From positions 20,894,001 through 20,958,000 of the forward strand of contig CP158635.1 of NCBI GenBank assembly GCA_050273025.1: a DNA stretch of 64,000 nt, written 5' to 3'. Of the stretch, positions 2,957 to 44,797 are shown piece after piece. A program made the translations under genes and the position numbers. How positions within the stretch are numbered: the stretch's first letter is position 1; the number at the start of each line of letters is the position of its first letter. The stretch comes from Cenococcum geophilum. Its lineage: Eukaryota. A model generated the notes under the pieces. It was not told where the DNA came from and ran no database searches. It saw only the letters and a program-made list of their open reading frames with translations.

Positions 2957-3988
2957 TTAAACTATCGCAATTATTAGCGGGTTATTTAGTATAATTTGTA
3001 CTAAAGAAGAATAGTAAACTAAGGCTGTGTATTAACTATAGATAGTTAAACAGCATTACTAGAAAGGATAGATATCCTTTACCCTTAATTAGCAAAATCT
3101 AAGATAGGATAGGCAATGCGTAAATCTTTACAAAGATAGATCTAAGATAGGCGTACTATTAGATTAGAATTAAGGAAGGCAATAAATAGAAGGCAGCCTT
3201 TAGGTTAAAGGAAGGACTATATAAACTATTAGTTATGCAATTCGGGCTTATAAACACACTAGTAATGTTCTAAAAGCGTATTAATAATATATTAGGAGAG
3301 TACTTAGATAAGTTTATTATAGTATATTTTATTATTATTATTATCTACTTAATAATTAAGGAAGAATATAGAGAATACGTTAAATGGGTCTTAAAGAGAC
3401 TATAAGAAGAATAGATGCTAGTAGCAATTAAGAAATACAAGTTCTTTACTAGAAAGACCGATTTTATTAAATTTATTATTAAACTAGGCTAACTTAGTAT
3501 AGATCTAAAGAAGATTAAGGCTATAGTGAATTAGTAAGAACTAGAGAATATTATATAGTTAAGATTATTCTTAGGGTTTTGCAATTACTATAAAAGGTTT
3601 ATAGCGTAATAATTAAAGGATATTAAACTATTTACGTAATTAATAAAGAAAGAAGAACTATAAGTATAGGGGAAGAAATAATAAAAACTATTTAAAAAAG
3701 TTAAAGGGTTATTTACCTAGGAGCCAGTTCTTAAAATCTATTAACTAGGTCTAGAGACGGTTATAAAGACAAATATATTAAACTTTATATTAGGGGTATA
3801 CTTTATATAGAAATATTTAGACGGATGGTACTTAGTAGTATACTATAGTTGGAAAATAACACTACTAGAGTTAAACTATAACATTTATAATAAGGAGTTA
3901 TTAGGTATAATTATAGTATTAAAGGAATAAAGAGCATTCTTATAAGGTATAGAGAAACTATTTATAATTAAGACGGATTATAAGAACT

Positions 3989-6130
3989 GAATATTCACCA
4001 CACATGCAACCTTACCAAAAGGTGGCGCCGCACTTCAAAACTTACGCATACCCATCTTACCATCAAAAACAATCGATTTCCTAACTTTTAAGACCTAATT
4101 CTCACTGCCTAGCGAGCTAGAGGTGGATTTATTTGTCGTTTTACCCCCTTTTCCCCAGCAGAAAATTCTTCTTAGGGGTGGTCCTAGCTTATAAGCGAGG
4201 CACGGACAGGAACACCAAAACTACAACTACTACTACGAATACTAATAGGGGCTAGTCTTTCTACTACCTTTTAGCCTAATCTCCCCAGAAATCTTCTAGT
4301 AGGATTAGTAAGGAGAAAGGGTATAAAGATAGTAAAAACTAGAAACCCCCCTATAAGATATAAAATGCCAAGGCCTAATAGGTCTAAAAAAAAACCTCCT
4401 ATAGAAATAAGTGATGAAGATTCTACATCTACTTTTTCTCCCCCTTCTCCTTCTCCTGGCCCGTTTAGGACAGGAGAAAAAAGAGGACATCCTCAGTCTT
4501 CTCCTAAAAAAGAAAACCAAAAACCTGCAAAAAAGATAATAAAACTAACAACTACTACGGATAGTATGCCTAGTATACCTCCGTCTTCCCTTTCTCCGGA
4601 AGAACATCTACACGAGGCTTTAAGAAGCCTAATCCAGGCCTATAGAGGGCTAGAAGGAGAAGAACAAGAAGAACAAGTTGGACAGCTAATGGACTATACA
4701 CACAATATCCTAATAGGAAAAAACCCCTTTGCAAAAGAAGAAGAAGAAGAAGAGGCAAAAGAGGTCCTAGAAGGACTAGTAGAAGAAGTAAAAGCTCTCC
4801 GTAAGGAGGTAGCTTCTACTAAAAATACTTACGCAGAGAGACTGAAGAAGGACCTCCCTTCTTTTTCGTCCTCCCCACCCTCCTCACCATTACCACCACT
4901 ACCTTCTACCCCTTCTTCTTCTAGTAGGGGTTCTACTTCTACTAGAAGTAAGAAAAAGCAGCTATAAGAAAGGAAACTAGTCCTAATTACAGACGAAAAG
5001 GACCAACCTCTAGATACCTTCTCTATACGAAATAAAGTCAATCAACTATTTGCATCAAAACTGCAAGTAAAAAAGCCAGTTCTAGCGTCTATAGCTAGAA
5101 CTAAAGGAAAACAAAATATTCTCCTTACGACTACAGAAGAGTATAATGCAGATTTCCTAGTCAAATATAAGGAGATCTGGCATAACTGCTTTACCTTTTA
5201 AAGAGAACAAAAACTAGAACCATGGGTTCAAATTATAGCCCATGGGGTTCCTACCCTACCTTTCCTAGGAGAAGGAGGCTCTAAGCTTCTAAAAGAAGAG
5301 ATTGAGACCTTTAATCCTATAAGGATACAAGGACTACCTAGATGGATCTTATCTAGTGAAAAAAGACACAATCCACAGACCAGATTTGGCTCTATAGTTT
5401 TTACTATAGAGAACGAAGAAAAAAGACAAGAAATCCTTAAGCAAAAAGAGATATTAATTGCAGGTACAGCTACTAAGGTAGTAAAGTACCTTAAAGTCTC
5501 TCCTACTACGCAGTGTAATAGCTGCCAAAAATTTGGCCATATAGGAGACAGATGCTTTACTAGGGCCTGTAGATATTATGCGGCTGCACATCTATCTAAA
5601 GACCACTGCTGTCCTACCTGCTTAATAAGCGGTAGGCCTTGCAAGCATACCACCCCTCTTTGCATTAATTGTAAAGAAAAACACTTTGCTAATAGTAGAG
5701 ACTGCGAGAATCTTAGAGCAGCTAAATTAGTACATAGTACTAGCGTAGAAGACTCTATGGAAGAATAAAATTAATAGAAGTCTAGAAGGAGGTAACTCCT
5801 ACTAGGCTTTTAGGTTAAAAGACAGTAGAGAGCAAAAGGACAGAAATAAATTGCAAAAGGACAGGGACAGGGGTTAGGATTTCTTACAGTTTTTCTTACC
5901 ATTTTCTCATTCCCTAGTAGTTGTAGTATCTTAGTATTTTTACTAGGAAACTATAAACTCCTAATTTAGGGGTTTATAAACTACTAGGATATAGCTACTA
6001 GTACATATTAAGCTGCCCCAAAAAGGATTTATGTATATAGAACTATAGCGCCATAGCCCAGAGGCTGCATGCGCAGTATTGTACGTAGTATAATACAATG
6101 GATAAAAAAAAAAAAAAAAAAAAAAAAAAA
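3989..6130 (+). mobile_element. Non-autonomous LINE derivative carrying only ORF1, with poly(A) tail
   Basis: 13-bp TSD gattataagaact (3976-3988 / 6131-6143) and poly(A) ~6104-6130. The 3' ~330 nt match the LINE end at ~28780-29130. Confidence 0.92.
4365..5768 (+). pseudogene. LINE ORF1 (gag-like, three C-terminal zinc-knuckle-like motifs), one RIP stop at 4965-4967
   Basis: ORF 4365-4967 continues in frame past TAA (from CAA) to CNSCQKFGHIGDRC, CRY(C)AAAHLSKDHCC and CINCKEKHFANSRDC, with stop at 5766-5768. Confidence 0.88.
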
Positions 6131-10869: not shown

Positions 10870-11305
10870 ATACAGAGCTTCGTATAAAGCCTCCGTACGC
10901 AGAACTTTATATAGAGCCTTATACAGAGCCTCTATATATAAAGCTTTATATAGAGCTTTGTATAGAGCTTTGTATAAAGCCTTATATAAAGCCTCTATAC
11001 GTAAAGCTATATATAGAGCCTTATATAGAGCCTCGCGTAAAGCTTTATATAGAGCTTTATATAGAGCTTTATACAGAGCTTTATATAGAGCTTTATATAG
11101 AGCTTTATATAGAGCTTTATATAGAGCCTTATATAGAGCCTCTATACGTAGAGCTTTATATAAAGCCTTATGCAAAGCTTTATATAGAGCCTTATGCAGA
11201 GCCTCTATATATAGAGCTTTATATAAAGCCTTCTGTAAAGCTTTATATAGAACCTTGTACAAAGCCTTTATATATAAAGCTTTATATAGAGCTTTATACA
11301 GCCTT
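10870..11305. repeat. 12-bp minisatellite (agctttatatag)n with occasional 15-bp units
   Basis: Directly visible. It generates the repetitive ALYK/ALYR ORFs in the ORF track. Confidence 0.9.
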
Positions 11306-15713: not shown

Positions 15714-16280
15714 TAAACAGGCATCAGATTTAAAGAATTAATAGCTATATACGGCTGTTATAGAGACTTAAGAGGATTACTAGAGAGCTTGAGAGAAATG
15801 CAGCTGCGCCCAAATTTATATAGGGACAATTAGGGTGGATAAACTATTTGCTAAGCGATATTAAATAAGGAAAGAAAACCAGCTACGCGCACGGCGTAGC
15901 GCATGGAACGGCAGTCTCGTAATAGGTATAACTATTAGTCTTTATATATTAAAATATTAAAAGCAGATTCTAAGCTATATAGCTTATACTATATAATATA
16001 TAACGTGTTTTATTATTACTTACTATTACTAAAATACCCTCTCTACTAGGTATATCTAATAGGTATATACTTTTATAGGCGTTAAGAGCACTATATACTC
16101 TTACCTAGCTAGGGTAGTAGGCTAAACTTATATAAGATCTTATTTAGTATTAATCCTAAAGCCTAATAATTTAAGGAGTTAATTAGCTTATTAAAGGGTA
16201 TTAAATAGTAATATATTTAGCTATTATACTTATAAAGGGGACTTGGGACTTTATATAGCTAATTAATATTAAAAATAAAA

Positions 16281-16365
16281 GCCCGCGAAGCCCTACTGTA
16301 CGCGTCCACGTTGCCGCGGGTGGAAATATCATCAGGAAACCTTACCTTTTGATGGTTAAGTGCAG
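16281..16365 (+). ncRNA. HDV/CPEB3-like self-cleaving ribozyme fold (this copy probably inactivated)
   Basis: P1 gcccgcg/cgcgggt (G.U at cleavage site), P2 ctgtac/gtgcag, P3 gcg/tgc, L3 tccacgt, P1.1 cc/gg, P4 tcatcagga/ttttgatgg and J4/2 ttaa (expected ctaa). G1 coincides with the insertion's 5' junction. Confidence 0.85.
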
Positions 16366-16563
16366 AGGCGATGGTAGAGAGCCGCCGCAGCGCATGCAGC
16401 GCGCTGTCGTTGTGGTTTTGTGGTGTTGAGCTCGCGACGCGTACTATTAAAGTATCGCCCTTAACAACACTAGAGCCTTACTGCCTCCATTTAAGGCTCC
16501 TGCTTTACCACCTAGGGAGGCCTATTAAGGGATACTGGGATACGAAAACCACCTAATGTACGA

Positions 16564-16690
16564 CTACCTGGCTTATAGCCAGGCCCGAAACTGGCCTTAT
16601 TATTAGCTAGTTAATATAGACGCGTCCTAGTCGCATAACAGGACACCCTTAGGCTTGTACTAGCTCTGAGATCGCAAGACGAGGGCGTAG
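16564..16690 (+). ncRNA. Candidate type II hammerhead ribozyme variant with a hairpin inserted at core position 7
   Basis: gccc-GAAA (16583-90), stem I agctagt/actagct, CTGA (16666-69)-gatcgcaagac-GA-gggc. Stem II is extended by ctac/gtag. The cleavage triplet att (16602-04) is inferred from GTC and stem III is imperfect. Confidence 0.5.
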
Positions 16691-19600
16691 GGAAACCCTT
16701 TTTTATAAGAACTTGTTAAGGTTAACGCGTTACAGATAAACCTCGTACGAAACTTATTAAGGCCCTAAGGCTACCGCGAAGAACTTATTAAGGCCCTGCC
16801 TAGAGAACTTATTAAGGCCCCTCTACGAGGGCCTATTTGGTATTTGGTACTCCTAGGTAACTTAGAAGAGGGTCTTAATAGGCGTGGTGCGCGCGACCTA
16901 GAGACGCGATAATGATATAATAGCGACGCGACGGCGATTAGACGGCTTAACGAGGTGGAAATATAGGCAAAGCTCTAGGCAGCGGAAACACAGGCCAGCT
17001 TTGACGGCCCTATAGCGTTCGACATACGGTTAACCTATAGGTGACTTACAGGAGGGCCTTAATAGGCGTGGTGCACGTAACCTGCGTATATATATAGGGG
17101 AGGCTCTAAGGAAATATAGGCTAGTTATATAAGGACTCGATAGTTAGAGATATAGGCCAGCTTATATAAAGGGGGGATATAAGCTTAATTAGTAGAATAG
17201 GGTAGGGTAGGTTGCCTAGTATAGGACCTAGTCTATAACCTATTCTGTAAGGCACGGTCGGCCTATTATAAGGAGACTCTTATAGGCAACGCGAAATAGG
17301 AATTAAAACCTCCCGTAGGGCGTAGTATATAGTAGCCACTGCTAGCTTTAGGGACCTTACCCCTTAGCTAGGCTCTAACCCCTAGTATACCTAGTAGGTA
17401 GGTAGGATTACGTCCTAGCTGGAGAGACTACTATACGGCTTAAGAGAATAGATACGCGTATTGGTATACTAACAGACGGGACTGCTTACTAGGGTAGTAC
17501 GCTAGTAAGGTATACTTAAGGAGTAAATAGGAGTTACTTGGGCGGGAGAGGTTTTGGCTAGGCCTTGATCGTAGAAGGTATACCTAGCTATATTACAGGA
17601 TGTAGCTATAACGCCCTTATAGGACTACACTAGTAGGCGCGTAAGATAGGAGTTGCGACCCCTATAAATGGTAGCTTATGCCCGCGCTAGTGGAAATAAT
17701 AAAGAAAAGCGTAAAACTAGAGGCTATAGAAGGCTCCTAAGCCGTATAAAAGTGTACTAACTTTAGGAGGAAACTCTTATATAGACCGCTGGGGGGTAGA
17801 TTAGTACTTGGGCTAATCCCGTTATAAGATATCTAAAAGAACTAGTGAGAATCCCTATATTAGGTAGTGGTAGCTAACTGCTTATAGACTAGGACTAAAG
17901 TATTAGAAAACTAGGGTAGAGGCCTAAATAAATAGGTATATTAAACTTTACTATATTACTAGCTAATATATAACTACCTACTATAAATTAGCTTTTATCT
18001 ATTTGTAAGGAACTAGGGCTACCTATAGTGTTTACGTAATAGGTAGCTACCTTCCTTAGTAATAGAAAGCTATAGCTTTGCTTTAATGGACAAATATAAA
18101 AAAAGGTAGATGTTACAGTGCTGTAATGAAGTAGACTAAATAGCTACGTTGTGGTATAAAGAGGGGAAGAAGGTGGAAAGGGGGTATTGTATACAAATAG
18201 TAGGGCTAGCCGCTAAGTCACTAGTGGTGGGCTAGCTAATAGTAGGAAATAGTATAAGATAGTATAAAACAGTATGTATTAGGTCAGTGCCGTAATAGTA
18301 CTCCTCTCCCCTAGATGGTTTGGTCCCTAAATTAAATAGATAACTTAAAAATAGGCAGTGTATAGGGTTACCTATTTTTTTTTTTTTTACTGTAAAGATG
18401 TTAATTCCGCTTACCGCCCTTAACCGAGCTAATGGCGATTTTCTATACCGGGCATGGAAAATCCTAATTAGTTAGTTTAGTGAGTAAGGTTGGTAGAACT
18501 CTATACCGCCACCTAAATTAATCCGCGTGGCGTTTCTTGGCAAGAATTTGGCTAATTAAATAACTTTAACTGCTAGTTAAAGTTCTATAACATCTTAACC
18601 ACCACAAATTTTAATACGGTGGTTGGCTGTGACCTTAGCGTAACTTTTCCTTATCTTATACTTAGTCTAAGGGTCTTGGCTTCTTAGGGTGTTACTTATA
18701 AAAGCGCTATATGGCTTATTTATAACCCCTTAGGTCTTCCTCTAGCTGCTAGGTTATGTCCTTATAATATTTCCATTTAATCTTATAAGTTAGGCCCTAG
18801 GGGTCTTTGTTGTATATATTAAGGATTTTCTTAAACTCCCATTTGTCTTCTATGTTACCATTATTATTTCTCTCTACTACTTATCCTTGTATATTACGGC
18901 GCTCTATAGTATTAATATTTACTTAGCTAGGGATCTTTTTAGTAGCCTAGAGGCGGACCTTAGATATATAAAAGGATTTATTTACTTAGATATAGTCTGG
19001 GAGGTCTACTACGACTACCCTTTAGTATACTGCGAGTACGGGGTATAGGCCGTCCCATTTATCGTCCTATTTCTTCTTAGGTCTATTTATCTTTATATTT
19101 TCTAAGCTAACTATAACTATATCGCCTTCGTAGAATAACGCGCTCTTATCCCTACGGGTATTAGCATTATCTTTATAGCGTTACTATAAAATCCGGGCTA
19201 GGGCCTTAAGCTATGTTAATATCTACTTAAAGCGGTTAGCCATAGAGTCTGCGCGGAAGAACTCCCTCTTTACTTATACTAATAGTATTAGTAGGTAGGG
19301 GCCAGCAGGCTTAATTCCAAGGCGAGGGTTAAAGCTATAGTTTACAAAAAATGGGAAGATGCCTGTGCTCTTATTGACTTGGTTATTTGTAGTAAACTTA
19401 GTAAGCGGCAGGTAGTTAACCTAGTTATCCTATATAAAGCTAACAAAAGTATAAAGGTATTTATTTACGGCAGCGTTAATAATTTTAGTTTAGCCGTCCG
19501 TTTCTAGGTACTAGGCTAAGCTTAGTTATAAGGTTGTCTTAAGGCGTTTACTTAGTCGTTGCTAGAAGTCGCTAACAAATTATATACCGCGATTAGAGAT

Positions 19601-20029
19601 AATCGTGCTTGGTATACTATAGAGCTTATATATATTATTAATAAAGCTATTAACTAGCTCCTCTATTAAGAGTCCTGTTACTAAAATAAGGTATTATATT
19701 TTAGTTAGGCGGTCTATAATAATAAGGATATATTTATATGCCTTACCGTGGCGTTAGTATACTAGCAGCGTTATAATATAGTTAATTAAGATATTAGTCT
19801 ATAGGCGGGCGGGTAATTTTAGTAGCTTTAGGAAACCGGGTGGGGTAGAATAGGGGGTCTTAGTGCGAAAGTATAGGGTATAGTCTTTAACGAAGGTAGC
19901 TATAAACTGGGAGATTCCTAGCTACTAATATATTTAGTTTAAGAGGTTAAAAGTTTTAACCCGGCTAGGGTAACTAGCGGGGCCGCTACTATAAGAATGA
20001 TGGGTAACTTCTAGGTGGAGGTCTAGGGT

Positions 20030-21408
20030 TTTTTTTTTTTTTTTTTTTTTTATATCCGATTGTATTATACTACATACAATACTGCGTATGCAGCCTCTAG
20101 GCTATGGCGCTATAGTTCTATATACATAAATCCCTTAGGGCAGCTTAACATATACTAGTAACTAAGTAAACACTCTGGCCCGTTTTAGATGCTAGGGGAG
20201 TTTTATCCTAGTATTTTGCTCTCTAATATTTAGTTTGCACTAAGGAAATAAAGAAATCCTGGCTCTTTTATCTATTTCTGCCGTATTCTGCCGTTCCTAG
20301 AGTAGAAAAAGCGCTCTAAAAGATAGATTTAGTAATATTTTTGCATATAAAAACAAAGGGCTCTATATAGTTTGCCAGCTTAGAGACAACTACCAGTTAT
20401 TCCTATACAACTTTTTTTGGTAATGTGACCTATTTCTTCTCCTTGCTTAAGAATAGGTAGGGAATTAGTAATTAATAGCTACTCTTCCCAAAAGTAGGCT
20501 ATTAATCCTAGATTTACGTTCTAGAAAACGGGTATTTTATAAGGGCGAACCTTGCTATATAAACCCACCCTAAAAGGAAAATTTTTCACAAGGTTGTCTT
20601 GTATAGGTTATAAACACCAATTCGCCTATACACCTTATATTTTACGTGCTAAAGTAACACAGGCCGGCCCCTTTCCCCCTACTATAGCTACCCTAGCAGT
20701 GCATCGTCTGCGGTGCCTCTGCTATGCGCCTGCGGTGCCTCTGCCATACGCTTATAGTATAGTAATTGCCTACAGCGCGACAGCTATAGACTAGTTATAG
20801 GGGATGAGGTCGTCTGCTCTATGGCAGACTGGTTATAGGGGAGGAGGTCGTCTACTCTGTGGCAGACTTATTGTAGGGGAGGAGGTCGTCTACTCTGTGG
20901 CAGATTCGTTATAGGGGAGGAGGTCGTCTACTCTATAGCAGATTCGTTATAGGGGAGGAGGTCGTCTACTCTATAGCAGATTCGTTATAGAGGAGGTCGT
21001 CTGCTCTGTGGCAGATTCATTATAGAGGAGGTCGTCTGCTCTATGGCAGACTGGTTGTAGGGGAGGAGGTTGTCTGCTCTGTAGCAGACTAATTGTAGAC
21101 AGGGTCGTCTGCTCTATGGCAGACTGGTTGTAGGGGAGGAGGTTGTCTGCTCTATAGCAGACTGATTGTAGAGGGGGTCGTCTGCTCTGTAGCAGACTGA
21201 TTGTAGAGGGGGTCGTCTGTTCTGTAGCAGACTGATTGTAGAGGGGGTCGTCTGCCTTATGGCAGACTGGTTGTAGTGGAGGTGGTTAGTTGTTGTGGTG
21301 ACGCGTCGTGTGACGCGTCCTCAGGGGGTATATAATCGGCGGCGCCCCTGCGACGACGGCGGAGGAGCAAAGGGAGGCGACGGCAGAGACGAAAGGGAGG
21401 CGACGGCG
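20030..21408 (-). mobile_element. SINE-like retroposon with LINE-derived 3' tail and tandem hairpin array
   Basis: 13-bp TSD ggaggtctagggt (20017-29 / 21409-21) and poly(T) on + at ~20030-20051. 20052-20163 matches the LINE 3' terminus at ~5995-6104 and ~29020-29130. No ORF. Confidence 0.9.
20790..21280. repeat. 13 tandem 35/38-bp units each containing a 7-bp-stem, 4-nt-loop hairpin (gtctgcY-NNNN-Rgcagac)
   Basis: gtcgtct/gttgtct at 20809, 20847, 20885, 20923, 20961, 20996, 21031, 21069, 21104, 21142, 21177, 21212 and 21247. Confidence 0.9.
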
Positions 21409-24400
21409 GGAGGTCTAGGGTATTAGGGACGAAGAGATATTAGCGGAAGTAGATCTGTCCGTTAATAATATTATATTCTAACTTATTATAATGGAGTAAT
21501 TTCCTAATCTTCTTTAGCTAATAGCGAGCTTTCTAATTATATAGGGCCGCTACTATATCTCTTACAAGTTTATTCTCCTAGTATCCTAGCCAGATTAACT
21601 TATTTAGTGACTTTTTGGCTATTTTAGGGTCTAGAGCGGCTATAAACTTTACGTTATTAGAATTACGGGACTTATATAATAATTCTTCTAAGATTATAGG
21701 GTTAACTTTCTGGGGCGGTATAACGACTTAGGCTTAGTAGCGGAGGCGTTTATTATTGGCGTCCTTAGGCCTTATTTTTAGTAGCCGGCTTAGGGCGTTA
21801 GGGAGCGTAGCTTTGCTACTAGGTCTATATATAATTATAAAGTTAAACTATAAAAGGAACTCTGCCTACTGGACTTGGCGCTAATTTAGCTACTTAGTAG
21901 TTATAAACGTCTATAGGTTCTTATAGTTAGTAATAATTTTAAACGGCTCCTTAGTCCCTTGCAGCTTAGGACGCTATTCCTTTAAAGCCTTAATAATAGC
22001 TAAGAGTTTTTTATTATAGATTTTGTAGTTATACTTTAGCGTAAAGTACTTTACGGAGAAGAATACGACCGGTCTTAATTTTCTGTTATTATTATACTGG
22101 GAAAGGACTCTGTCGGAAGCCTAATTTAATACATCTATCTCTACTACTGTTTTCTTTATATAGTTATAGTATGCTAGTACTAGTGCTAAAGTAAAGGCTC
22201 CCTTAAGGGCCTTAAACGATTTAGCTTATTCTAGTCCCTATAGCTATCCAATATCCTTCTTTAGGAGTTTTGTTATAGGTATAGCGATAGCAGAGTAGCT
22301 TTGGATAAATTGTTAGTAGAAGTTCGCAAAGCCGAGAAATTATTATAGTTCTTTAATTAATGTCGGGTCCTTCTATTTTTATAAGGCCTATACCTTCTTA
22401 GGGTCTATAGTTATGCTATTAGTTAAGATAATTAAGCCGAGGTATTTTGTTTTAGTAGAGTAAAACTTAGACTTATTAATATTAATCTAAAGTCTAGCAT
22501 TACCAAGTCTTTGGATAACTTCATTTATATACTTAGTATGCTCGGCGCGTATTTTAGAAAAGATAAGGATGTTATTAAGGTAGACAGTGCAGTAGTTATT
22601 AAGGGCGTTATATAGAATATAGTTAATATAATTCTAAAATATAGCGGGTGCGTTATAGAGGCCAAATAGTATAACTAGTATTTTATAGAGTCCGAACCGG
22701 GTAATAAATGCTATAAGCTACTTATAGCCCTTTATAATCTAGATCCGGTTAAACGCAGTAATTATATTAAGTTTAGTAAAGTACTTAGCACTATAAAGTA
22801 CGTTAAGTATCTTGCCGATTAGTAGTAGTGGGTACCAATTTTTAATAGTAACTGTGTTTAGGCCTTAGTAGTTATAGTAGATTTATATACTACCGCCGGG
22901 CTTAGCAGCGAGGAAAAGTAGTGCGGTAGCTAGTGAGGTTAATTTGCGGATAAAACCCTTATCTAGCATCTTATTAATCCACTTCTTTACACACCTAAGT
23001 TCAGCAGGTAAGAGTAGTCTATTTTTATAGTATAGGGCCTAGTTTCCGGGGATAATCTTAATTTTATGGTCCCATAGTTGGTAAGGGGGTAGCTTATCTG
23101 CGTTCTTAGGGAGGAAGTGCTTAATATATTTATAAAACTCCTTTAGTAGGCGTTATAGAATGTCTTCGCAGGTTAATCCTAGTTTGCTTTTTAGGAATTT
23201 TTTAACATTAATATTAACTATCTTCCAACGTAGAAGCTTGGGTTTAGTTTTTAGATTTATCTTAAGGAAGTTATAAAAATAGGGGGGGAGTACTTTACGG
23301 GCTTCCTTTATTATATAGTTGCCTTTTACTAGCCAGCGGAAAGACCTTTCTAATAGGTTTGGTACTTCTATTAGGCCTATAGGCAGCTCTTTAAGCAGCT
23401 ATTAGTGCTTATCTTATTTAACTAGTTCTACTAGCTTCGCTATATAGATCCTTATTACCTTTATATCTTTTTATTTATAGAACTAGGTAAAATTAATAGT
23501 ATAAGTATATTTAATATTATCTAGGTTAGGGCGTATCTAGTTCTCCGGTGCTACGGCTGGGCTAGTATAGCTTAGTCAGCCTAGGGGGGCGGAAACGAGG
23601 CGGCGGCCCTATATAGTACGCGCGGGAAACGGGTATAAGGTTAGGTATTATAGTGGCGCGGTTTCTCTTATTCGGGTCTTAGTAGTTCCATAGCCAGTCC
23701 TTATTATAACGCGAGCTGTAGTATGCGTATATAGCATATAGCTTAGTTCTAGGTATTAGGCTAGGCGGCTAGGGTTTAAATAGTACCTAAATTGGGGTTA
23801 GATTCTTAGTAGTGGCGGCATAAAGCGGACCTTCTTTCTAGGTCTCGGCAGGGCTGGCTAGCCCGTCGTTTTAGTCTTAAGTACTAAGGTAGTCCAGTCT
23901 TCCGCTATTTTATTTCTTTGCAGCTATATAGGCTCCCCTTTATTAGAAACGTCTTTTACTATTAGGGCTTTATATATAGTTCTAGGCACTAAGCTTAGTA
24001 GTGCTAAGTATCTATATAGGGCGTCCCTACTACCATTAGTTATCCCCTATAGGAGGTAGTGCCTAAAGCAGTAGTCTAAGTTAAAGCGGATCTTAAGTTT
24101 CCTAAAGCTAGGACGGGGCTTATATTTCTAAAGCTAAAGCATACCTAAGATAATTAGGGTAGTAAGCGAGAGTTTAGTAATAAAAAAGAGCATGGCTTTA
24201 GTATAAAGGCCAATTAATATTTAGGTGGTAAAGTAGTCTGTAATAAGCGAAGTTAGGATACTATCTGCGAGGCGTAGTGGCCTAGGTGCTAGCAGCTTCT
24301 TAGTTATAACGTTATACTTTCTTATAATAGACTCTATATTAATAAATGCCATTACAGTACTACCGGAGTCTATTAGGCTTACTATATTAATATAAACTTA

Positions 24401-26563
24401 GGGGTATAGGTTATATAATAAGGAGAGTTAGGTTTAAATAAGGATTAATTTCTTATTACTGTTTGCTAATCTAAGATTAAGTGGCAGCTTACTAATAAAA
24501 AAAACTAATTAATCTAGTAATAGGGACCTAATCTTCTTATCTTCCTCTTTATATAGTTTAGACCCTTAGACGCGACTTAGTCTAAGGGTTTGCCTTTTAA
24601 TAACTAGGGTATAGGGCTATCTTAGCGGGGCGGTTTAGTGTCCGTCTGGCTAGTAGTGTCGGTATTAGTCTTAGTCAGAGTATAGGAAGACAATACCTCG
24701 CCGACGATATAGCTATGCTTATATTTACTAGCGCGGAGTCGCTAATACTAGGCGTTGTTAACGGGTTAAGCTCCTATATAGGGTATAGTTTGGAGTAACT
24801 AAGCCGTAGGGTTAAAGGGGGGGGTTATCCGCTGCGGCTATAATAGGCTCTATAGTTGCCGCGTCTATAATAAACTCTACGGTCGCCATGTCTGCGGTTA
24901 TTAGTTTGCGTTATTTAGCGGGGTAGTATTAGGACTAGGTTTACTGTCTTAGTAAAGTTATAGGCGTCCTTCTAGTAGCTAGGTAGGCTATAGGTAAGGT
25001 ATAGTCTATTATTAACGCGGCGCTTATATTCCGTATCTGAGATTCCATTAAGGTCTATAGGTTCTTTAGTTATTACTAGGGTTAGGGTTAATATAGGGGC
25101 AGAGGCTTAGGTAGGTAGGCGGTAGTTAGCGTTCTTCTTAAGGTTAGCTTAGTGTGCATAGTTCGCGAGGTTCTTAGTAAATATATCTATCTGCTTATTC
25201 TAACCTATATAGTTACTGTTATTGATTTTATAGGTAAGTCTAAGTACTAGCTCTTCTATCTTTAGAGAAATAAACTTTTAGAGTAGGTCTACCTTCTATT
25301 TATCTATTTTTTTGGCGCGGACTATTAGCTTATTAAGCTCTCCCTTCCAGGACTAGTAATTACGCTCGCCCTAGGGGAAATGGTTAAGCTTATTTTTTGC
25401 GACCTAGGTCGTATTAAGGACCTCGTAGTAGGTAGTAAGGTCTTTAAGCATATCTTCCTTAGTAGGCCATTTCCATGCAGATATATTGTTTGGGTTCTTA
25501 TATATAAGCTCTAGGCCCTACTTAATAAACTTATAGGCCTTGTCCTTTAGTATATCCGAGATATAAAGGATCTGGGACTAAACTATATTAAAGTAGTCCC
25601 AGTCCCAGTTAAAGACTCCCTTAATCTTAATATGCCAGGTTTTAAAATTAGCTTATCATTCTAGCGGGGTGCCTTTTCCGCTAAATATTAGTAGGTCTTT
25701 AGATCTCCGTTTTTTCTGCTAGGTTACTACCGTTATTATAAGGGTTGATTATTTTAAAACGGCGATAGTCTCTGCCTGGGAGTTAATAGTTCCTATTTAA
25801 AAAGCGATAAGGGCACTAAGGTTTTCGTTAGCTTTTTTATTGGCGGTGTTTGTATTATATATATACTATAGTCCTATTTTAATATTATTAAGGAACTCGT
25901 TGGTATAGTTAATAAGGGTAAGGTAAGCTTTGCTAGGCTTAAAGGTTTTAGGGTATAGTAGGGAGCAGCGGATTGTCTATGTAATATTGGGGTATGTCTC
26001 TATAAAGAGGTCTATAAAAACGTCACAGGAGTTTTAGGTTTTGGCTATTTTAGCATCATTAGTGTCGCCTATATAGGCATTAGGTAAAAACTAAGGATCG
26101 TTTTAAGACTATGCTGGGGACGTATTAGTTTTAGCAGAGGCGCGTATAGGTCGCGATTGCTCTAGAGTAGAGGTTAATTGGCTAGGGTATAAGGAATTAG
26201 TGATCGCGATGGGGCGTAAATTAAAGATACTATAAACTGTTATAGTGCTGTAATAAAGTAGACTAAATAACTACATTGTGGTATAAAGAGGGGAAGAAGG
26301 TGGAAAGGGGGTATTGTATACAAATAGTAGGGCTGGCCGCTAAGTCACTAGTAGTGGGCTAGTTAACAGTAGGAAATAGTACGAGATAGTATGAAATAGT
26401 ATGCGTTAGGTTAGTGCCGTGACAGTAGAAATAGAAACAGGGATACTATAGGGTTTGCCTATATCCCCTATTTTATTTCTATTATATATACATAATATCT
26501 GCAGCCTATAGATAGAAGGAGCCTATTCCCTTAGCTATATGGACGATTTTGTAATTACGGTTA

Positions 26564-26997
26564 ACGTGATTTATAAGCCAGTGGCCTATATAAGTAAGTG
26601 GCCCACCCCACCTAATACGCGACGCGTTATTTAACAACCACCTAAATGGCACTACAATAGCAAGAGGCCCTTTTTCGAGAGGGTTGACCTAGGTGTTTAA
26701 GCCTATAAGCTAGGCTAAATTATATCCTTACGAGGTGTCGAGAGGGCATATAATAGAAGGGGGTAGTAGAGGGGGCAGCGGTAGTGGCGGAGTGACCGTA
26801 ATAGGTAGTGCGCAAGTATAGTATGTGTAAATTAGCAGAATATATAGCACGTACGTGCCCTAGACGGTAGGCAACTAGCGTGTAGATAGCTACACTAAAT
26901 ACAGTTATTTATGGTTAAATAATTGTCCTGTTTTGCGATCGCGTGTTTAGTAGGGTAGGCTACTTGCTTATGTGGGCTACTAGCTTATAGATTACGT
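26564..26997. mobile_element. Short non-autonomous pogo/Fot1-type element (MITE-like) inserted just after the LINE YMDD motif
   Basis: TA TSDs and ~45-bp TIRs acgtgatttataagccagtggcc.../...ggctactagcttatagattacgt. The LINE frame is restored on removal. Confidence 0.88.
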
Positions 26998-29197
26998 TAC
27001 TTTGAACTCAGCTAAATCTAATTGTAAAAAGCTAGAGGGAATAGCGCTAGAGCTAATGTCTAGAGCTAAAGAAGCTGCTATTAGTTTTAATATTAGTAAA
27101 ATAGAGCTTATACACTTCTATAGTAAGCGTACTACTATAGAAGAAGGGCTAAAGCTAGGAGATATAGAAATATCCCCTAAACCCCTAGTTAGGTGGCTAG
27201 GGGTATTTCTAAACTCTAAGCTTACTTTTAAACAATATATAAAAATAAAAATCTCTAAAGCAAAAACAGCCTTTTATTTAATTAGAAGACTAGGTAATAT
27301 ATAAAGAGGTCTATCTCTATAAGCTCTACGACAGCTCTATATAGCTTGCGTTACTACTATAGCAGACTATAGAATATAATGCTAGTAGAAAAGCAAATCT
27401 AGAAACTACCTACTAGCTAGGTACTAATCTCTATAAAATAAGGCCCTAAAACTAGTCTTAGGAGCGTTTAAAGGACCTCCTACGCAAGCTATAGAAATTG
27501 AGGCCTTTATCCCTCCTCCTAGAATTAGATTTAAAAAGCTTTGCAATAGCTATATATTAAGAATCCTAAAATTTAAAGAAAACCACATAATTAAGAAGGC
27601 CTATATAAAAGAGATTAATAAGGATAGGGAGGAACTAGTAACTAGTTCTAGTTCTAGTCCTAGCCCTAGAAACTCTACTATAAGACACCTTCTATAGCCA
27701 AAAACTTAACTACTATCTCTAGCTTCTAGAGTCTAGTAACTAATTTAAAATTGGAAAATAGAGAGAATCTCTCTAGATTGGCAAAAACCGTGGTCTCCCC
27801 CTATTTCTGCATTCTTTTCTATCTCTAGGGGTAGTAAAGAAGAAGCTGTATAAGAACATTTAAGACTAGTAGAAAATCTATAAGAATTCCTAGAATGGGA
27901 CCTAGTAGATATATACTATATAGACGGCTCTAAAGATAGTAAATTAAGTGTAGCGGCCGTATGTAAAATAGGGGAGAGAAATAGGATTAAATACGCAATA
28001 AATTGGAATTTAGGGCCTTATATGGAAATTATAGACGCAGAACTTTATGCAGTCTATAGGGCCCTAGAATATCTAAAACAATAAAGACTAGAAGAGAAAC
28101 AAGTTTATATCTTTATAGATAGCTAAGCAGCTATTAAAAGATTACAGCTTAATTCTCTTATAGGGGGACAAGAACTAGTCTTTAAAATTACGCAAAGCTG
28201 CTCTTATCTAGCTAGTAAGAATATCTCTATTAACTTTTATTGGGTTCCTAGCCACCTAGAAATCTATAAAAATAAAATAACAAATAAGCTAGCTAAAAAG
28301 GGCCTCTCTAAAAGAAAAATATAATCTTCTTATACATCCCTAGCCTATATAGGGAGAGCAGCAAGAGAAAAAATACTAGAATAGTGGAAAAGCAACTAGC
28401 AACAGAAAAAAAATAAAGGAAAATACTATACTAGGATCTCTAGAAGAAACTACTCTTTATCTCTTAAAGCCCTTAAGGATAAATATCCTAAAAGGTTATA
28501 ATTAGCTTTATATCAACTAAAACTAAGAAAAGGCTTCTTTAAATCCTTCTCTAAGACAATAGGGAAGGATAAAGAAGGTAGATGCTTTAAGGACTATAGA
28601 GCTATATAGACTCCTAAGCACCTATTACTAAAATGCAGACTATATAGGGGAGAGAGAAAAGAAATGTAAAGACAACTAAGCTCTTCTCTCTCCCTAGAGA
28701 AGCTCTTTTGTACAGAGAAAGGAAAAAGGGCGCTCTTCCTATTTCTAAGTAAAACAGAAATAGCTACTAGAAAGTGGCTAATAGAAGTAAAAGCTTTAGA
28801 AGGAGGTAACTTCTACTAAACTTTTAGTAAATAGATAGTAGTAAGTAAAAGGATAGAAATAAACTATAAAATGTATAGGGGCAGGTATTAGGATTTATTT
28901 ACCATTTCTTTTACTATTTTTCTACTGTTTTAATACTACCTAATAGTTATCGTAACCTAGTATTTTACTAGGGAGCGGTAAACCTCTAGTCTAGAGGTTT
29001 ATAAACTACTAGGATATAGCTACTAGTATATATTAAGCTGCCTAGAAAGGATTTATATATATAGAACTATAGCGCCATAGCCCAGAGGCTGCATACGTAG
29101 TATTGTACGTAGTATAATACAATAGATATAAAATTTTAAAATTTAAAATTTAAAAAATTTAAAAAATAAAAGTAATAGTACCGTTAGAGGTATATTA

Positions 29198-30715
29198 TAC
29201 AAAGGCGCGCGGCATTAAATTTGACCTATATTTAAGCGAGCCTCACCAAAGTAGAAATGCGCATCACGAAAAACACCTTAAATCGCGATTCAACCCCACC
29301 AAAATCTAAGTACTACCCGTGAAAATTATTTCTACCTTTGTGTTCTATAATAAGGGTATTAATAGCTGCCATTCTGGCAACGAGAGCCCTAATCTTTGCC
29401 TATGGGAGGTCATCCCACGCACCTCTCCACGCTCTATCCGTCCATTCTAGAGTATAAGGGGCACCCCATTGCTGAGTTATTTGAATCCTCATAGGCATCC
29501 AAGCTCCCTCAATAGCGTTTATATTAGGGGAGTTGCCTATATACTCTAATAACGGGATACCTTCTTTCTTAAGGAGGCGTAAAGTCCACTTACTAGAGTA
29601 TAAGGGAGCGTTATCTTACTAAAAGACGTAGCTAGGTTAATTACACTTAAATATATCCAGATTATGCCGTTATAACATAATCTCTTTATAAAAAGGAATT
29701 AAGTATGGTATAATCACCTCGTATAAGTAGCGTATATTGTCTACGCCTCCTCTACTGATGATTCTTCCAATATATCTCCCAACTGGCCCTTTTTAACGGA
29801 AATCTCTGCCCTTTAGCTGTCCACTTAGCCTCCTTATCCTTCTCTTATTGTGCAAACTCTACCTAACATTTAACTTCTAGCTCCTCCGTATTAAGTGTCT
29901 CAATCGCATCTTTATAGGTCTGCTTTTAGTTAGCAGTTTTGGGGTAATATATATAATAAGGGCCTTTTTAATCGTACGTAAAGCATCCCCAAAACATTAC
30001 TTCTAAGTAGTTATTATACTGGCGTTTAATGCAATCAGGATGATAGCGTTTATTAGGAAATCGTGATATATTCTAGTATCCTTACTTTACGAAGACAATA
30101 ATAGAAGCTTCGTCCAAGAAGATAACCATTCTCTACTCTACTAGACCCCAATCCTTTCGCGAGAGTGCTACCTTATATCTTTATACCTCCTAAATGTCCG
30201 TAAGACCTAACTTCTTTATGCTTTTAGCTCTGCGAAGGCCTCTTTCGCGGAGCTTCTTCTCAATCATACGGCGGTGGTAGTCGAAGAATCTATCCTCCTT
30301 TACGACGACGTGCCAAAGCTTCTTCCGTTGTTTCTTATTTAACGTATAACTTTCAACTAAGTTGGTAATCTCTTAAACTAAGGTTTGAGGCTTCGCACCT
30401 AATCCAGGCTTCCTAGCAACTTGCTCTTTAATCGTAGGGGTAGGGAGACCAGCTTCTTCACACTCTACCAGGAAGGCACCAACGCGCGCTCTAATCTTTT
30501 TAGCTGTGTTTATATTAATTCCAGCTCGTCGAGCAGCCTCTGCAGAATGCACGTATTGTAGGTGGGTCAAATATTCAATCTTCTGGCCTTCCGTAGGTGG
30601 TGGAGCCATAAGTTCCGTCTCAGTAATTATCTTGGTGGGGTTTGCTAAGAAAAAATTTCGCTAATAAAATACCTCGGCAAAATATGGGTCAAATTCAATG
30701 CCGCGCGCCTTCGTA
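29198..30715 (-). mobile_element. Tc1/mariner DNA transposon, transposase 30609->~29313, lightly RIP'd
   Basis: TA TSDs and ~36-bp TIRs tacaaaggcgcgcggcattaaatttgacc / ggtcaaattcaatgccgcgcgccttcgta. Motifs VIF.DEAS, QDNAP and NSP..NAIEGAW. Confidence 0.92.
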
Positions 30716-39000: not shown

Positions 39001-42000
39001 AAAGTTGTCTAGGACCACCCGATCACGGAAAAGGCTATAACTTATATTAAAGGAGCCTTAATTATAACGTTAAAAGATCTAAAGGAGCAATTAGAGGACT
39101 AGAGAAGTAAAAGGTAAATCTTAGTACCTGCAAACGAAGTTGCAACACTTAGATTAATATAAGAAAGGTTTAAACTTAAGGATAAAGACAAGCTAAGAGT
39201 TAACCTAAGACACTAAGCACATTACACGTTAGCATAGATCGTATATATAGATAATGCGTGTAATATGCATAGAGCACTAAAAGATAAGAATTGGAAATAT
39301 CTAGTAAGGATATAGTAGTTAGCAGATAAGGCGAAATACTAAAACGCTAAGTATATGCATAGTTAGCACCTAGTAGAAGTTTAAGAATAAGGGGACTTAA
39401 TACTTTAACTAGAAAGATTCCTTATAGAAGAATACCTAGACGGATAATAGTGGTATAAATGTCCTAAGAATACGTATCTATAGCATATTAAAGATAAAAA
39501 GCGAACTAAGTATTGGCCTAAGTTAGACTAAGTATAAATAGGATCTAGTGGCTAGTAGTTAGGAAAAGTAGAGGCCTATAAAACCAGAGGGAACTAGTAG
39601 TAAAGCCTTAAACCCTTAAAGGAATTTAAGGAAAATACCTAAATTTACGAGTTAAATGGCAAGATTAACAGTTTGAGGTATTAATAGATAGTAAAGCAAT
39701 AAGGAACTATATCTTACTAGTAGCAGTTAAAAGAATAGGGTTACCGCATAGGAAAAAGGAATGTCCTTATTTATTAGTAATAATTTTAGGAGATCTAATA
39801 GCCTATGGAGGAGGTATTATTAATCTTAAAACAGGACCTATTTAGTTAACTATTAAAGGGAGATAAATTGAGATGTCTTTTAATATATTACTATTAGGGA
39901 ATAATAAGGTAGTATTAGGAATGCCTTAGTTATAGGAATATAATTTAAAGATTAATTGGGTTATAGGTTAGGTCAATATTAAGGATACTTAACGCCGTAA
40001 GATGTAATAATAAGCCAAAATAGTATGGTACTAAGTAGGAGCGACCTACGAGAAAATAGAAAAAGGGCTAAGCTATGTACTAAAGAGATACCACAAGTAT
40101 AGCAAGAAACTATAGTTATTAGAAAGTAAAAAGCTATTAGAGTATACAGTATAGGACTATAGGATAGAATTAGAACTAGAAATAAGTCTAAGGTTCTTTC
40201 CAATCTATAAGCTTATTAAAGAAGAAGGTAGAGCATTAAAAGAGTTTATCTAAGAGAACTTATAAAAGGGATATATTAGACTATTGTAATTATTAGCGGG
40301 TTATCTAATACTGTTTGTACTAAAGCAGAATAATAAATTAAGGCTGTATATTAACTATAGATAGTTAAATAGCATTACTAGAAAGGATAGGTATCCTTTA
40401 CCCTTAATTAGCAAAATCTAAGATAGGATAGGTAATGCGTAAATCTTTATAAAGATAGATCTAAGATAGGCGTACCATTAGATTAGAATTAAGGAAGGTA
40501 ATAAATAGAAGGCAGCCTTTAGGTTAAAGAAAGGACTATATAAACCATTAGTTATACAATTTAGGCTTATAAACGTACTAGTAATATTCTAGAAGTGAAT
40601 TAATAATATATTAGGAGAACACTTAGATAAATTTGTTATAGTATATCTTAACGATATTATTATCTATTTAATAACTAAGGAAGAATATAGAGAGTACGTT
40701 AAATGGGTTTTAAAGAGACTATAAGAAGAATAGATGCTAGTAGCAATTAAGAAATGCAAGTTCTTTACTAGGAAGACTAATTTCATTAGATTTATTATTA
40801 AACTAGGCTAACTTAGTATAGATCTAAAGAAGATTGAGGCTATAGTAAATTAGTAAGAACTAGAGAACGTTACGCAGTTAAGATTGTTTTTAGGGTTTTG
40901 CAATTACTATAGAAGGTTTATAGCGCAATAGTTAAAGGATATTAAGCTATTTATACGGTTAATAAAGAAAGAAAAACTATAGGTATAGGGAGAAGAGTAA
41001 TAAGAACTGTTTAAGAAAGTTAAAAGGTTATTTACCTAGGAACTAGTTCTTAAAATCTATTAACTAGGTCTAAAGACGGTTATAAAAATAGATGTATTAG
41101 ACTTTGCACTAGGGGTATACTTTATATAGAAATATTTAGATAGATGGCACCTAGTAGCATACTATAGTTAAAAAATAACACTACTAGAGTTAAACTATAA
41201 TATCTATAACAAGGAGTTATTAGGGATAGTTATAGCATTAAAGAAATAGAGGGCATTCTTATAAGGCATAGAAAAACTATTTATAGTTAAGATAGATTAT
41301 AAGAACCTAACAGGATTCCTAATAATAAAGGAACTTAATTAAAGATAGGTTAAATAGGTAGAGATACTTATAGAATACTATTTCGAGATTTAGTATACTA
41401 AGGGTATAAATAACACGCGGGCTGATACGTTAAGTTAAAAGGCTAAACTATAAAATAATAAAAAGCTATTAAGGGCTTTACTGCGAAGAGATATAGATAG
41501 GTTAATTAGATACAATTATCTAAAAATTATAGTAACTTAAGAAAATAAGTTAGAGAAAGTTTATAAGTTACTAAAAAGCTTTTAGGTATAAAGAATTCTA
41601 GAAGTATAGCTAGAAGACCTATAAACGGATATATATAAAAACTAAGAAGTAAAGTATATCCTAAAAAGTATAGCAGAGCACTTTATAGAAGATTTCTATA
41701 AGGGATTAACTTAAGGACATAATAAAGCCACGGGATTAGTGTTAAGACTCTAAGAGGAGTATATTATTAACGGAATCTAAAAAATAGCTAGGAAGGTTAC
41801 TAGAGAGTATCTAGATTATTAGAGAAATAAACTAATAAGGCATAAGCTATATAGAGGGCTATAACCTATTAAAATACCAGAGAGACTATAGGAGGTCATA
41901 TTATAGGACTTTATTATTAAGTTGCTAAAGTTAAGAGATTCTATTACCGGATAAGATTATAACGTAATCTTAGTAATAGTAAATAAGCTTATAAAGTAGG

Positions 42001-44106: not shown

Positions 44107-44797
44107 GGTCCCCTTTAGCTATATACGCTAGTGCTAAAAGCTAGAGATAATAGCCAGCATTTCTTTATTATAGATATGGTAGTTTAGCTTAGCATTTATT
44201 ATAGTCTTTAAATAGTATATAATAGGGTGCTATTCTCTGTCTAGTTGCTTCTAGGAAAAAATACTAGCTATTACGCTATTTAAGGCATTAGTTTCTAGTA
44301 TTAAGGGCTGTTTTAGGTTAAAATAAGTAAATAGGGGAGCCGATACTAGCCGTTTCTTAAGCTTATTAAAGGCCTGCCTATATATAGCGTTAAAGTAAAA
44401 GGGTTAGTCTTTTCTAGTAAGACGGTTAAGAGGCCGGGTGATTCTACTATAGTTTTTAATAAAGTGTTAGTAGAAGTTATAAAACCCTAAAAATAATTAT
44501 ACCCCCTTTACGGTCCGTGGGGGTGCCTACTAGTTAATTACGGCCGTCTTCTTTAGGTTAGTTTTAATTCCGTTTATACTAATAATAAAACCTAGGTACT
44601 TTATACGCTTAATACTAAACTTTAACTTCTTAATGTTAACCTAGAGGCTAGCCTTGCGGAGCTGTTATAGGACTTTATAGACGTGCTTCTTATATTCTAG
44701 CTTATTCTTAGAGTAGATTATAATATTATTTAAATAAGCTGTATAAAAGTCGTTAAGGTAGTTAAAGAGTATATTATTTATATACCGCTAATATATA

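Follow-up and report, generated by a model that had tools for sequence, protein, structure and literature searches.

A non-coding RNA module with a predicted ribozyme head, probably joined to LINEs by template switching, in Cenococcum geophilum

The stretch of Cenococcum geophilum DNA analysed here (hereafter the window: 64,000 nt, GenBank assembly GCA_050273025.1, contig CP158635.1, positions 20,894,001 to 20,958,000 of the forward strand) carries at 16281-29161 a composite element made of three parts. The first is a structured non-coding module of 1702 nt (16281-17982, + strand) headed by a predicted ribozyme of the hepatitis delta virus (HDV) type, the second is the 3' half of a long interspersed nuclear element (LINE), and the third is a Gypsy/Ty3 retrotransposon nested within that half. 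Relatives of the module in metagenome contigs have constant ends and are joined to LINEs of more than one lineage at many different positions. The explanation that we consider probable is that an independent structured RNA, its 5' end set by a ribozyme, was joined to LINE complementary DNA (cDNA) by template switching onto a 3'-terminal CC.

The composite element at 16281-29161

The left edge of the module is flush with a target-site duplication (TSD) of 11 nt. The 11-mer AAAAATAAAAG is present twice, at 16271-16281 on the + strand (the left copy, AAAAATAAAA(G)) and identically at 29162-29172 (+), directly after the A/T-rich tail of the LINE, so that a single TSD pair encloses both module and LINE half, just as an earlier sequence-only reading of the window had maintained. 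The final G of the left copy may belong either to the TSD or to the element as its first nucleotide, G1. At its other end the module reads ...ATATAACTACCT followed by ACT, which places the end at 17982 and not at 17984, where it had first been drawn. The form of these last letters in the family is GCC, and ACT is, to judge by the sequence, the form that repeat-induced point mutation (RIP) has given it. The region around the module is AT-rich and TpA-rich, as in DNA struck by RIP, and the window copy is a dead relic, full of C-to-T and G-to-A changes that include the catalytic C of the ribozyme.

Searches for coding content in the module returned nothing. Six-frame comparison with Pfam profile hidden Markov models, over 16001-29500 and over the module alone, gave no family inside it, and tblastn with 26 full-length relatives of the LINE protein (apurinic endonuclease, reverse transcriptase and ribonuclease H; APE-RT-RNaseH) gave no + strand match at E<0.5 in 16281-17985, neither to the endonuclease nor to the N-terminal RT. 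The idea that the module represents the APE and N-terminal RT of a LINE with a single open reading frame (ORF) was rejected on the strength of this empty tblastn result. The ORF1 product (467 aa) of a LINE relative elsewhere in the window (4365-5767) has no tblastn match in the module, the module has no DNA similarity to the whole of that relative (3988-6129), and self-comparison found no other module copies within the 64-kb window. The earlier claims that the module lacks ORF1 and endonuclease signatures, and that it does not resemble the 5' end of the relative at 3989, are thus borne out.

Behind the module, LINE homology starts abruptly. When 26 relatives of at least 1100 aa were compared by tblastn, ORF2 homology began only at 17986 or 17992, in agreement with the start near 17985 that had been read from the sequence; these starts fall at residues ~595-704 of the relatives, whose length is ~1300-1400 aa, about 60-120 residues into the RVT_1 match. 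The segment that follows the junction (17983-18110, + strand) is a mid-RT portion of ORF2 that reads ...LCFNGQI*KKVE..., and the remaining LINE (26430-29161, + strand) contains the RT motifs GLPISPILF and YMDDF from 26437, the thumb, an RNase H region (+ strand, about 27980-28360, placed by alignment to P0002), a CCHC-type C-terminus, a 3' untranslated region (UTR) and the A/T-rich tail. With 26861-28825 as query, a profile-free search against 1.84 billion proteins found 6735 relatives at E<=0.001 (best 9.4e-132), the full-length ORF2 relatives having the architecture endonuclease (Exo_endo_phos_2) - RVT_1 - RNase_H.

The two LINE segments are separated by a Gypsy/Ty3 element with long terminal repeats (LTRs) at 18111-26424 on the minus strand, recognised by Pfam matches to RVT_1 and RT_RNaseH on that strand near 22800-21950 and by self-comparison of its LTRs. 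These are 187 bp long (TG...CA; 18111-18297 and 26238-26424) and identical at 170 of 187 positions, all 17 differences being transitions, and the element is flanked by the TSD GTAGA at 18106-18110 and 26425-26429. It interrupts the RT domain of the LINE. Excision of 18111-26429 restores a single frame, ...LCFNGQI*KKVEIETGIL*GLPISPILF..., and one tblastn high-scoring segment pair of a full-length relative spans the join; the LINE part therefore consists of 17983-18110 plus 26430-29161, and the Gypsy element is a later insertion that lies outside the chimera. The sequence-only reading was right that an RT-RNaseH-tail half follows the module, but took it to be unbroken and did not mention the Gypsy element. 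This 8.3-kb element also has an internal tandem repeat of ~0.5 kb at 20788-21287 and contains, in opposite orientation, a 136-bp fragment (20029-20164) that is 90.6% identical to 5992-6129, the 3' end of a LINE of the type that we call LINE-A.

The relative at 3988-6129 is itself of the LINE-A type. It is almost intact and barely mutated by RIP, and it has lost all of ORF2 except the last few codons. What remains is a 377-nt leader of its own, a 467-codon ORF1 with CCHC knuckles and two in-frame stops, the 3' UTR and a 27-nt poly(A), within a 13-nt TSD (GATTATAAGAACT); it is nested in another repeat, of which an uninterrupted copy is found at 40273-44112.

The module family and its predicted structure

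Relatives were sought in metagenome contigs with the ribozyme core, in which T was replaced by Y and A by R in order to match copies from before and after RIP alike. At least 121 loci were returned, and all counts for the family given below are among the matches listed. Six of these loci are chance GC-rich matches (L043, L073, L078, L095, L101 and L102), in two (L029 and L072) the contig breaks off within the ribozyme, and two others (L108 and L117) lack the first ~15 nt. At least 110 copies share G1 as their first nucleotide and are preceded by a complete flank of 30 nt, and no pair of these flanks shares 24 or more of its 30 positions. With 110 unrelated flanks, G1 must be the 5' edge of a repeat that lies at 110 different insertion sites. 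The window module aligns from position 1 to ~1684-1707, that is from end to end, with more than 40 loci at 74-86% identity, and across copies the length of the module is 1.4-1.85 kb. Module words also occur in sequencing runs, namely in DNA of two organisms, in root and soil metagenomes and, at a share of 5-7%, in fungal metatranscriptome contigs; these word shares are no evidence of expression or habitat.

The relatives also bear on whether the module is a RIP-degraded ORF1 or endonuclease region. We rejected this candidate because the un-RIPped relatives have no conserved ORF, for ORF1 or for any other protein: in 11 little-RIPped copies, with a G+C content of 0.53-0.575, the longest open frames on the + strand run to 62-128 codons and fall in non-conserved places. 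L029 has an open frame of 172 codons on the minus strand.

The first 89 nt of the module (16281-16369, + strand) can be drawn as the nested double pseudoknot of an HDV-like ribozyme with predicted cleavage 5' of 16281, in keeping with the earlier description of the module as ribozyme-headed. In this fold, which lies throughout on the + strand, P1 has 7 bp (16281-87/16315-21, GCCCGCG/CGCGGGT) with G1.U at its base, P2 is CTGTAC/GTGCAG (16296-301/16360-65) and P3 is GCG/TGC (16302-04/16312-14), and the joints between P2 and P3 and between P3 and P1 have zero length. The CC of loop L3 (TCCACGT) pairs with the GG after P1 to form P1.1 (16306-07/16322-23), a P4 hairpin occupies ~16329-16355, and J4/2 (TTAA, 16356-59) stands before the 3' strand of P2. 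The catalytic-C position of J4/2 is 16356, where the window copy has T; among relatives long enough to judge, 109 of 112 have C there, within a J4/2 of C(C/T)AA. The T is consistent with a C-to-T change through RIP, and with it the ribozyme of the window copy is probably dead; further C-to-T changes are found in P2, P3 and J1.1/4.

A descriptor that we modelled on the published HDV-like consensus matches at 16281, and none of 6 block-shuffled windows contains a match. Two further matches occur in the real window, one at a minus-strand AT-rich site at 16109 and one near 11070, in a TA-rich tandem and palindromic repeat (10870-11300) that meets the loose descriptor by chance. The minimum-energy fold of the head alone recovers P2 and P4, and its energy is not better than that of shuffles (z 0.22) because the program cannot form a pseudoknot. 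Rfam models run over 16000-18500 at E<=10 gave only chance-level matches to unrelated families.

The window copy and 90 distinct relatives were then aligned over the ribozyme, leaving out L049 for its P4 deletion. The 31 pairs of the fold are formed in 96.6% of cells in the 91 sequences, as against 34-54% when partners are slid, although alignment columns 18-43 were fixed by the search pattern and are hence uninformative. The base pair of P1 is G.U in 84 of the 91 and A-U in another 5, which puts a purine-pyrimidine pair at the predicted cleavage site. Three distant copies (L115, L029 and L072) have CAGCAC/GTGCTG in P2 instead of CTGCAC/GTGCAG, which in L115 is a change on both sides, from U-A to A-U at the second pair, and they have a different P4 helix (CAGCC.../...GGCTG).

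Outside the ribozyme, L029 and L072, which have diverged, share with the main family long near-identical blocks between variable, indel-rich stretches. An RNAalifold consensus from 13 copies has 434 pairs, with 94.2% of cells paired as against 36-42% when partners are slid by 1-3 columns, and 100 of the 434 pairs changed on both sides as against 17-36 when slid; the consensus was derived from the same 13 sequences, so that the slid controls flatter it. Several helices occur in three or four compensated versions (GGUGUACC/GGUACGCU, GGUACAUC/GACGUGCU, GGUAUGCA/UGCAUGCU and GGUGCACA/UGUGUGCU), which by our comparison would be hard to explain other than by conserved structure. The module is, on this comparative evidence, a non-coding, structured RNA with strong compensatory changes.

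The interior of the module is repetitive. The motif GAACTTRTTAAGGCC is found 3-4 times (for example in window 16707-16830 and 16854-17083), its near-complement GGGTCTTAATAGGCGTGG 2-3 times and ACACAGGCCAG 4-5 times in un-RIPped copies, and the first two are able to pair together. At the 3' end, after a covarying hairpin, all loci have a conserved single-stranded tail, AUAUAACUACCUGCC (17966-17982 in the window). This tail resembles the 5' end of U1 small nuclear RNA (snRNA), AUACUUACCUG, and could pair with a sequence like a 5' splice site, possibly by chance. In five loci, ARAGORN found no tRNA-like gene at the 3' end of the module.

Junctions with LINEs and the origin of the chimeras

In all of the more than 40 aligned loci the module ends ...ATATAACTACCT. 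The next letters are GCC in 22 loci and a transition variant of GCC in 15, which makes 37 of the 48 loci with enough sequence; the ending ...AACTACCT(GCC), or ATAACTACCT, is thus kept, and ...ACCTGCC is its constant form. Past GCC, the sequences of different loci diverge, and clustering distinguishes 41 junctions in the 48 loci. One partner, LINE-A, has 81-94% DNA identity to the LINE of the window and is joined at query positions 2381, 3024, 3077, 3187, 3220, 3303, 3624, 4187, 4325, 4407 and 4420. A second, LINE-B, has 24-35% amino acid identity to the same protein relatives and a different tail, (TAA)n. A fragment at 49369-49713 (minus strand) is 83% identical to the 5' region of LINE-B in the metagenome loci, so this second lineage is also present in the genome of the window. 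The partner in L033 is an ORF1-only derivative that retains the last 89 ORF1 codons and the 3' UTR (compare the form at 3988-6129), and there are further tail types among the loci.

Not all partners are LINEs. In the un-RIPped, diverged L072 (1399-1497) the module is fused in sense to the interior of a tyrosinase coding sequence (PF00264, E 1.1e-7, 32.9 bits), and the contig ends 96 nt past this fusion; from its sequence it looks like a chimeric retrocopy of the module and a messenger RNA. Two other loci have another module, truncated at its 5' end, directly behind a full one (L010, oriented 1719-2125; L023, oriented 1848-1972), an arrangement that hints at double template switches by analogy with the tripartite chimeras of Magnaporthe.

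TSDs enclose the chimera as a whole. Among 51 loci with at least 1.9 kb of downstream sequence, 21 have an exact TSD of 12-16 nt around module plus LINE, following the A/T-rich LINE tail, whereas 12 nt was reached in only 18 of 997 comparisons with the flank of another locus. The TSD-bounded elements are 1.9-6.5 kb long. The sequence-only reading had regarded a separate TSD around the module as the mark of an independent insertion; in these 51 loci we found none around the module alone and none around the LINE part alone. The LINE part can be as short as about 220 nt (L005), and every copy keeps the LINE 3' tail.

At 38 junctions the LINE sequence could be compared with a longer copy of that LINE as reference. 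In 21 of these the reference has CC under the last two letters of the module, against a background CC frequency of 4.6%. Before the CC, the LINE mostly has T, C or A, whereas the chimera has G (or A). As the preceding G is absent from the LINE, it must come from the module while the CC is shared, which gives an overlap of 2 nt, with a cDNA ending ...GG placed on an acceptor ending ...GCC-3'.

We propose the following course of events. A LINE of the APE-RT-RNaseH type would be reverse-transcribed at its target, starting from the 3' tail. Mid-RT, the enzyme would leave the LINE RNA for a separate, highly structured non-coding RNA (ncRNA) of ~1.7 kb, which it would enter at the free 3' end (...ACCUGCC-3') and copy to the very first nucleotide. 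The HDV-like ribozyme in the first ~90 nt of this RNA would have freed it from upstream sequence, so that every DNA copy would start at the same G. The switch itself may be aided by a 2-nt pairing, in which the LINE template is mostly NCC and the GG end of the cDNA would pair with the terminal CC of the acceptor. The chimera would then be sealed into the chromosome with an 11-nt TSD, and each copy, bearing a ribozyme head, could supply module RNA whose 5' end is correct if transcription enters from outside. In our judgement 16281-29161, once the later Gypsy element is subtracted, is probably the product of one such retrotransposition that combined two RNAs. A template-switch chimera of an independent ribozyme RNA and a LINE transcript was one of two options named by the sequence-only reading, and constant ends, 41 different junctions in 48 loci, at least two LINE lineages and TSDs at 21 of 51 loci support it as the main mode.

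Several points weigh against this proposal. The loci were picked from metagenome contigs by a ribozyme pattern, and ribozyme-less copies are therefore invisible to the search. Among the loci listed there is no solo or master copy of the module that could be the source of a free 3' end. Nor were there head-to-tail arrays, in which the 3' end would be made via cleavage by the ribozyme of the next unit: a loose pattern gave 26 matches, none with a module end before G1. Neither GCC nor a transition variant is found at 11 of 48 junctions, and 17 of 38 have no CC overlap. The covariation of the ribozyme is thin, with 5 pairs changed on both sides, a number reached by 10 of 500 shuffles, and a covariation score reached by 3 of 500; we attribute this weakness to the youth of the family and to the columns fixed by the search pattern. 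No Rfam HDV-class model matched even intact copies (the window at the gathering score, five loci at E<=1), which weighs little, the models being narrow. The circularity of the structural controls, mentioned above, counts here too. Finally, the proposal depends on a free module RNA, on the making of its 3' end, on its transcription and on self-cleavage at G1, in vivo or in vitro, all of which we infer from the sequences.

An alternative is that the chimeras are themselves the transposing units, a non-autonomous family comparable to short interspersed nuclear elements (SINEs), with a ribozyme head and a LINE 3' tail, formed rarely and copied often. The LINE 3' tail kept in every copy would suit such a family, and comparable chimeras in Magnaporthe, the MINE elements discussed below, are transcribed (PMC2104539; here and below, papers are cited from excerpts). 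Six junctions, moreover, recur in two or three loci whose flanks differ (L006/L071, L011/L014, L013/L065/L080, L025/L076, L045/L051 and L054/L058). These common junctions could stem from the re-mobilisation of a chimera or from switching hot spots; some loci with a common junction belong to module subfamilies that differ in length (1823 nt in L054, 1511 nt in L058), which is as compatible with hot spots as with copying. Against the alternative, 41 distinct junctions in 48 loci and several LINE lineages indicate many independent formations. As a general account we regard it as unlikely, and the non-autonomous family with its own RNA head, the second option of the sequence-only reading, survives as a minor mode, to which the six common junctions may belong.

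A second alternative, in which one LINE lineage has the module as its native 5' leader and the junctions are internal deletions or recombinants, is in our view largely refuted and very improbable. It draws on the HDV-like ribozymes known at the 5' ends of LINEs such as R2, L1Tc, RTE and baggins (PMC6765202), and on L025 and L076, in which the module precedes an almost full-length LINE-B. However, three full-length copies of LINE-B (one in L096, one in L022 and a second copy upstream in L071) begin at ...ACTTTTGGAGCTCTTGC, preceded by unrelated AT-rich flanks and not by the module, and within its TSD the LINE-A relative at 3988-6129 has a 377-nt 5' UTR of its own. Full-length LINEs without the module show that it is not their native 5' UTR. 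Deletions, moreover, would not give a left break that is constant and a right one that is variable. The module of L025 and L076 connects to the same LINE-B 5' end (ACTTTTGGAGCTCTTGC) via 5-6 extra letters, as if the enzyme had copied the LINE RNA completely and then jumped from its end.

That two events were involved, with a 5'-truncated LINE landing beside an older module copy and the A-rich 11-mer repeated by chance, is hardly credible: the right repeat does merge with the A/T-rich LINE tail, and in flanks of 75% A+T short A-rich matches are not rare, but the same architecture has non-A-rich TSDs of 12-16 nt at 21 of 51 loci against 18 of 997 controls, and the LINE part has no TSD of its own.

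Comparison with known systems

Comprising over 100 insertions and 41 junctions and involving several LINE partners, the family is a natural experiment on the rules by which LINE RTs switch templates, the 2-nt CC overlap being one of them. It adds a large, well-covarying family of structured RNA and, to the HDV-like ribozymes of fungi, one of canonical type that is present in high copy and escapes the Rfam models. For annotation, it gives an identity to heads of 1.4-1.85 kb that are otherwise filed as unknown repeats or degraded LINE 5' regions.

Retrozymes and viroid-like circular RNAs are likewise non-coding, ribozyme-bearing and non-autonomous, and they have hammerhead ribozymes at both ends and circularise. 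The module, by contrast, has a single 5' HDV-like ribozyme, no second ribozyme according to Rfam in five loci, and no sign of circles, so that nothing observed points to the retrozyme or viroid-like nature that had been suggested for it. R2 SIDEs and NARTc are LINE derivatives that are headed by an HDV-like ribozyme. In R2, L1Tc, RTE and baggins, an HDV-like ribozyme within the first ~80-180 nt cleaves at the first nucleotide of the element and frees its RNA from a co-transcript (PMC6765202, PMC3185411). There the ribozyme belongs to the 5' UTR of the LINE itself or to a deletion derivative (PMC6765202), whereas here it is separate from LINEs that have 5' ends of their own. In the open-access literature searched, such ribozyme-headed LINEs are those of metazoans and trypanosomes, not fungi, and we found no case of a fungal retrotransposon with an HDV-like ribozyme in the titles and abstract openings of open-access papers and preprints.

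Fungi do have HDV variants, which resemble the module ribozyme in belonging to the HDV class and in occurring in many copies per genome (Li and Breaker 2017, PMC5640933). Three features mark these variants: the pair at the site of cleavage is C-G, P4 contains an E-loop, and P2 and P3 are separated by an additional nucleotide (PMC5640933). In the module the corresponding pair is G.U, P4 is a simple helix and nothing is inserted between P2 and P3. As all three marks are absent, its ribozyme is of the canonical type, of which only 11 examples were known in fungi according to the excerpt of PMC5640933.

In mammals, chimeric retrogenes of U6 snRNA and L1 have been described in which, as here, a full-length RNA forms the 5' part, a variably truncated LINE forms the 3' part and one TSD encloses both; their accepted cause is template switching during target-primed reverse transcription (PMC2104539). 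U6, unlike the module, is a housekeeping RNA with genes of its own. The module is ten times longer, has no known cellular role and has a 5' end that is predicted to be set by a ribozyme.

The closest analogue is MINE of Magnaporthe grisea/oryzae, which was reportedly first described by Fudal et al. in 2005, and its existence makes it too strong to call the system in the window undescribed. MINE consists of an RNA called WEIRD and a 5'-truncated LINE called MGL (Gogvadze et al. 2007, PMC2104539, which gives the WEIRD/MINE accessions as EF585235-EF585237). It shares with the module a full-length ncRNA as 5' part (about 1 kb in MINE) and a variably truncated LINE as 3' part, direct repeats around the whole chimera (10-20 bp in MINE), the lack of any solo RNA copy, some junctions common to two elements, tripartite forms and a GCC motif at the switch site (PMC2104539). 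The motif at MGL switch sites is given as GCC*(A/U), without microhomology (PMC2104539), in contrast to the CC overlap at 21 of 38 junctions here; by analogy, GCC*(A/U) may be such an overlap. As described, MINE joins WEIRD to MGL (PMC2104539), whereas the module joins at least two LINE lineages. The excerpt of PMC2104539 mentions no ribozyme, whereas the RNA here, 1.4-1.85 kb long, starts with an HDV-like one. We found no link between WEIRD and ribozymes in open-access papers and preprints, although a mention in Fudal et al. 2005 or in the supplements of PMC2104539 is possible. The published 20-nt MINE primer MNR2, a single primer and not WEIRD itself, has a best match of 5 mismatches to the module, which is chance level.

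Chimeras of an ncRNA and a LINE have thus been known in one fungus since 2005-2007, with WEIRD itself left without gene, function or relatives. WEIRD was called a probable housekeeping RNA without relatives in other genomes (PMC2104539), whereas the module has diverged relatives in other metagenomes. A ribozyme at nucleotide one gives a concrete reason why the RNA is always 'full length', and would make each chimera a source of that RNA without a promoter of its own. We tentatively hypothesize that the module is a dedicated selfish RNA, a 'template-switch retrotransposon' with neither a LINE-derived tail nor a protein, and not a borrowed cellular RNA. Such an RNA would offer its 3'-terminal CC to stalled LINE RTs, its ribozyme would restore the exact 5' end from read-through transcripts, and its structure of ~1.5 kb would serve stability and nearness to LINE particles; WEIRD would then belong in the same class and not among housekeeping RNAs. 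The architecture is already known from MINE and U6-L1, and the new part is a ribozyme-headed RNA as the 5' partner.

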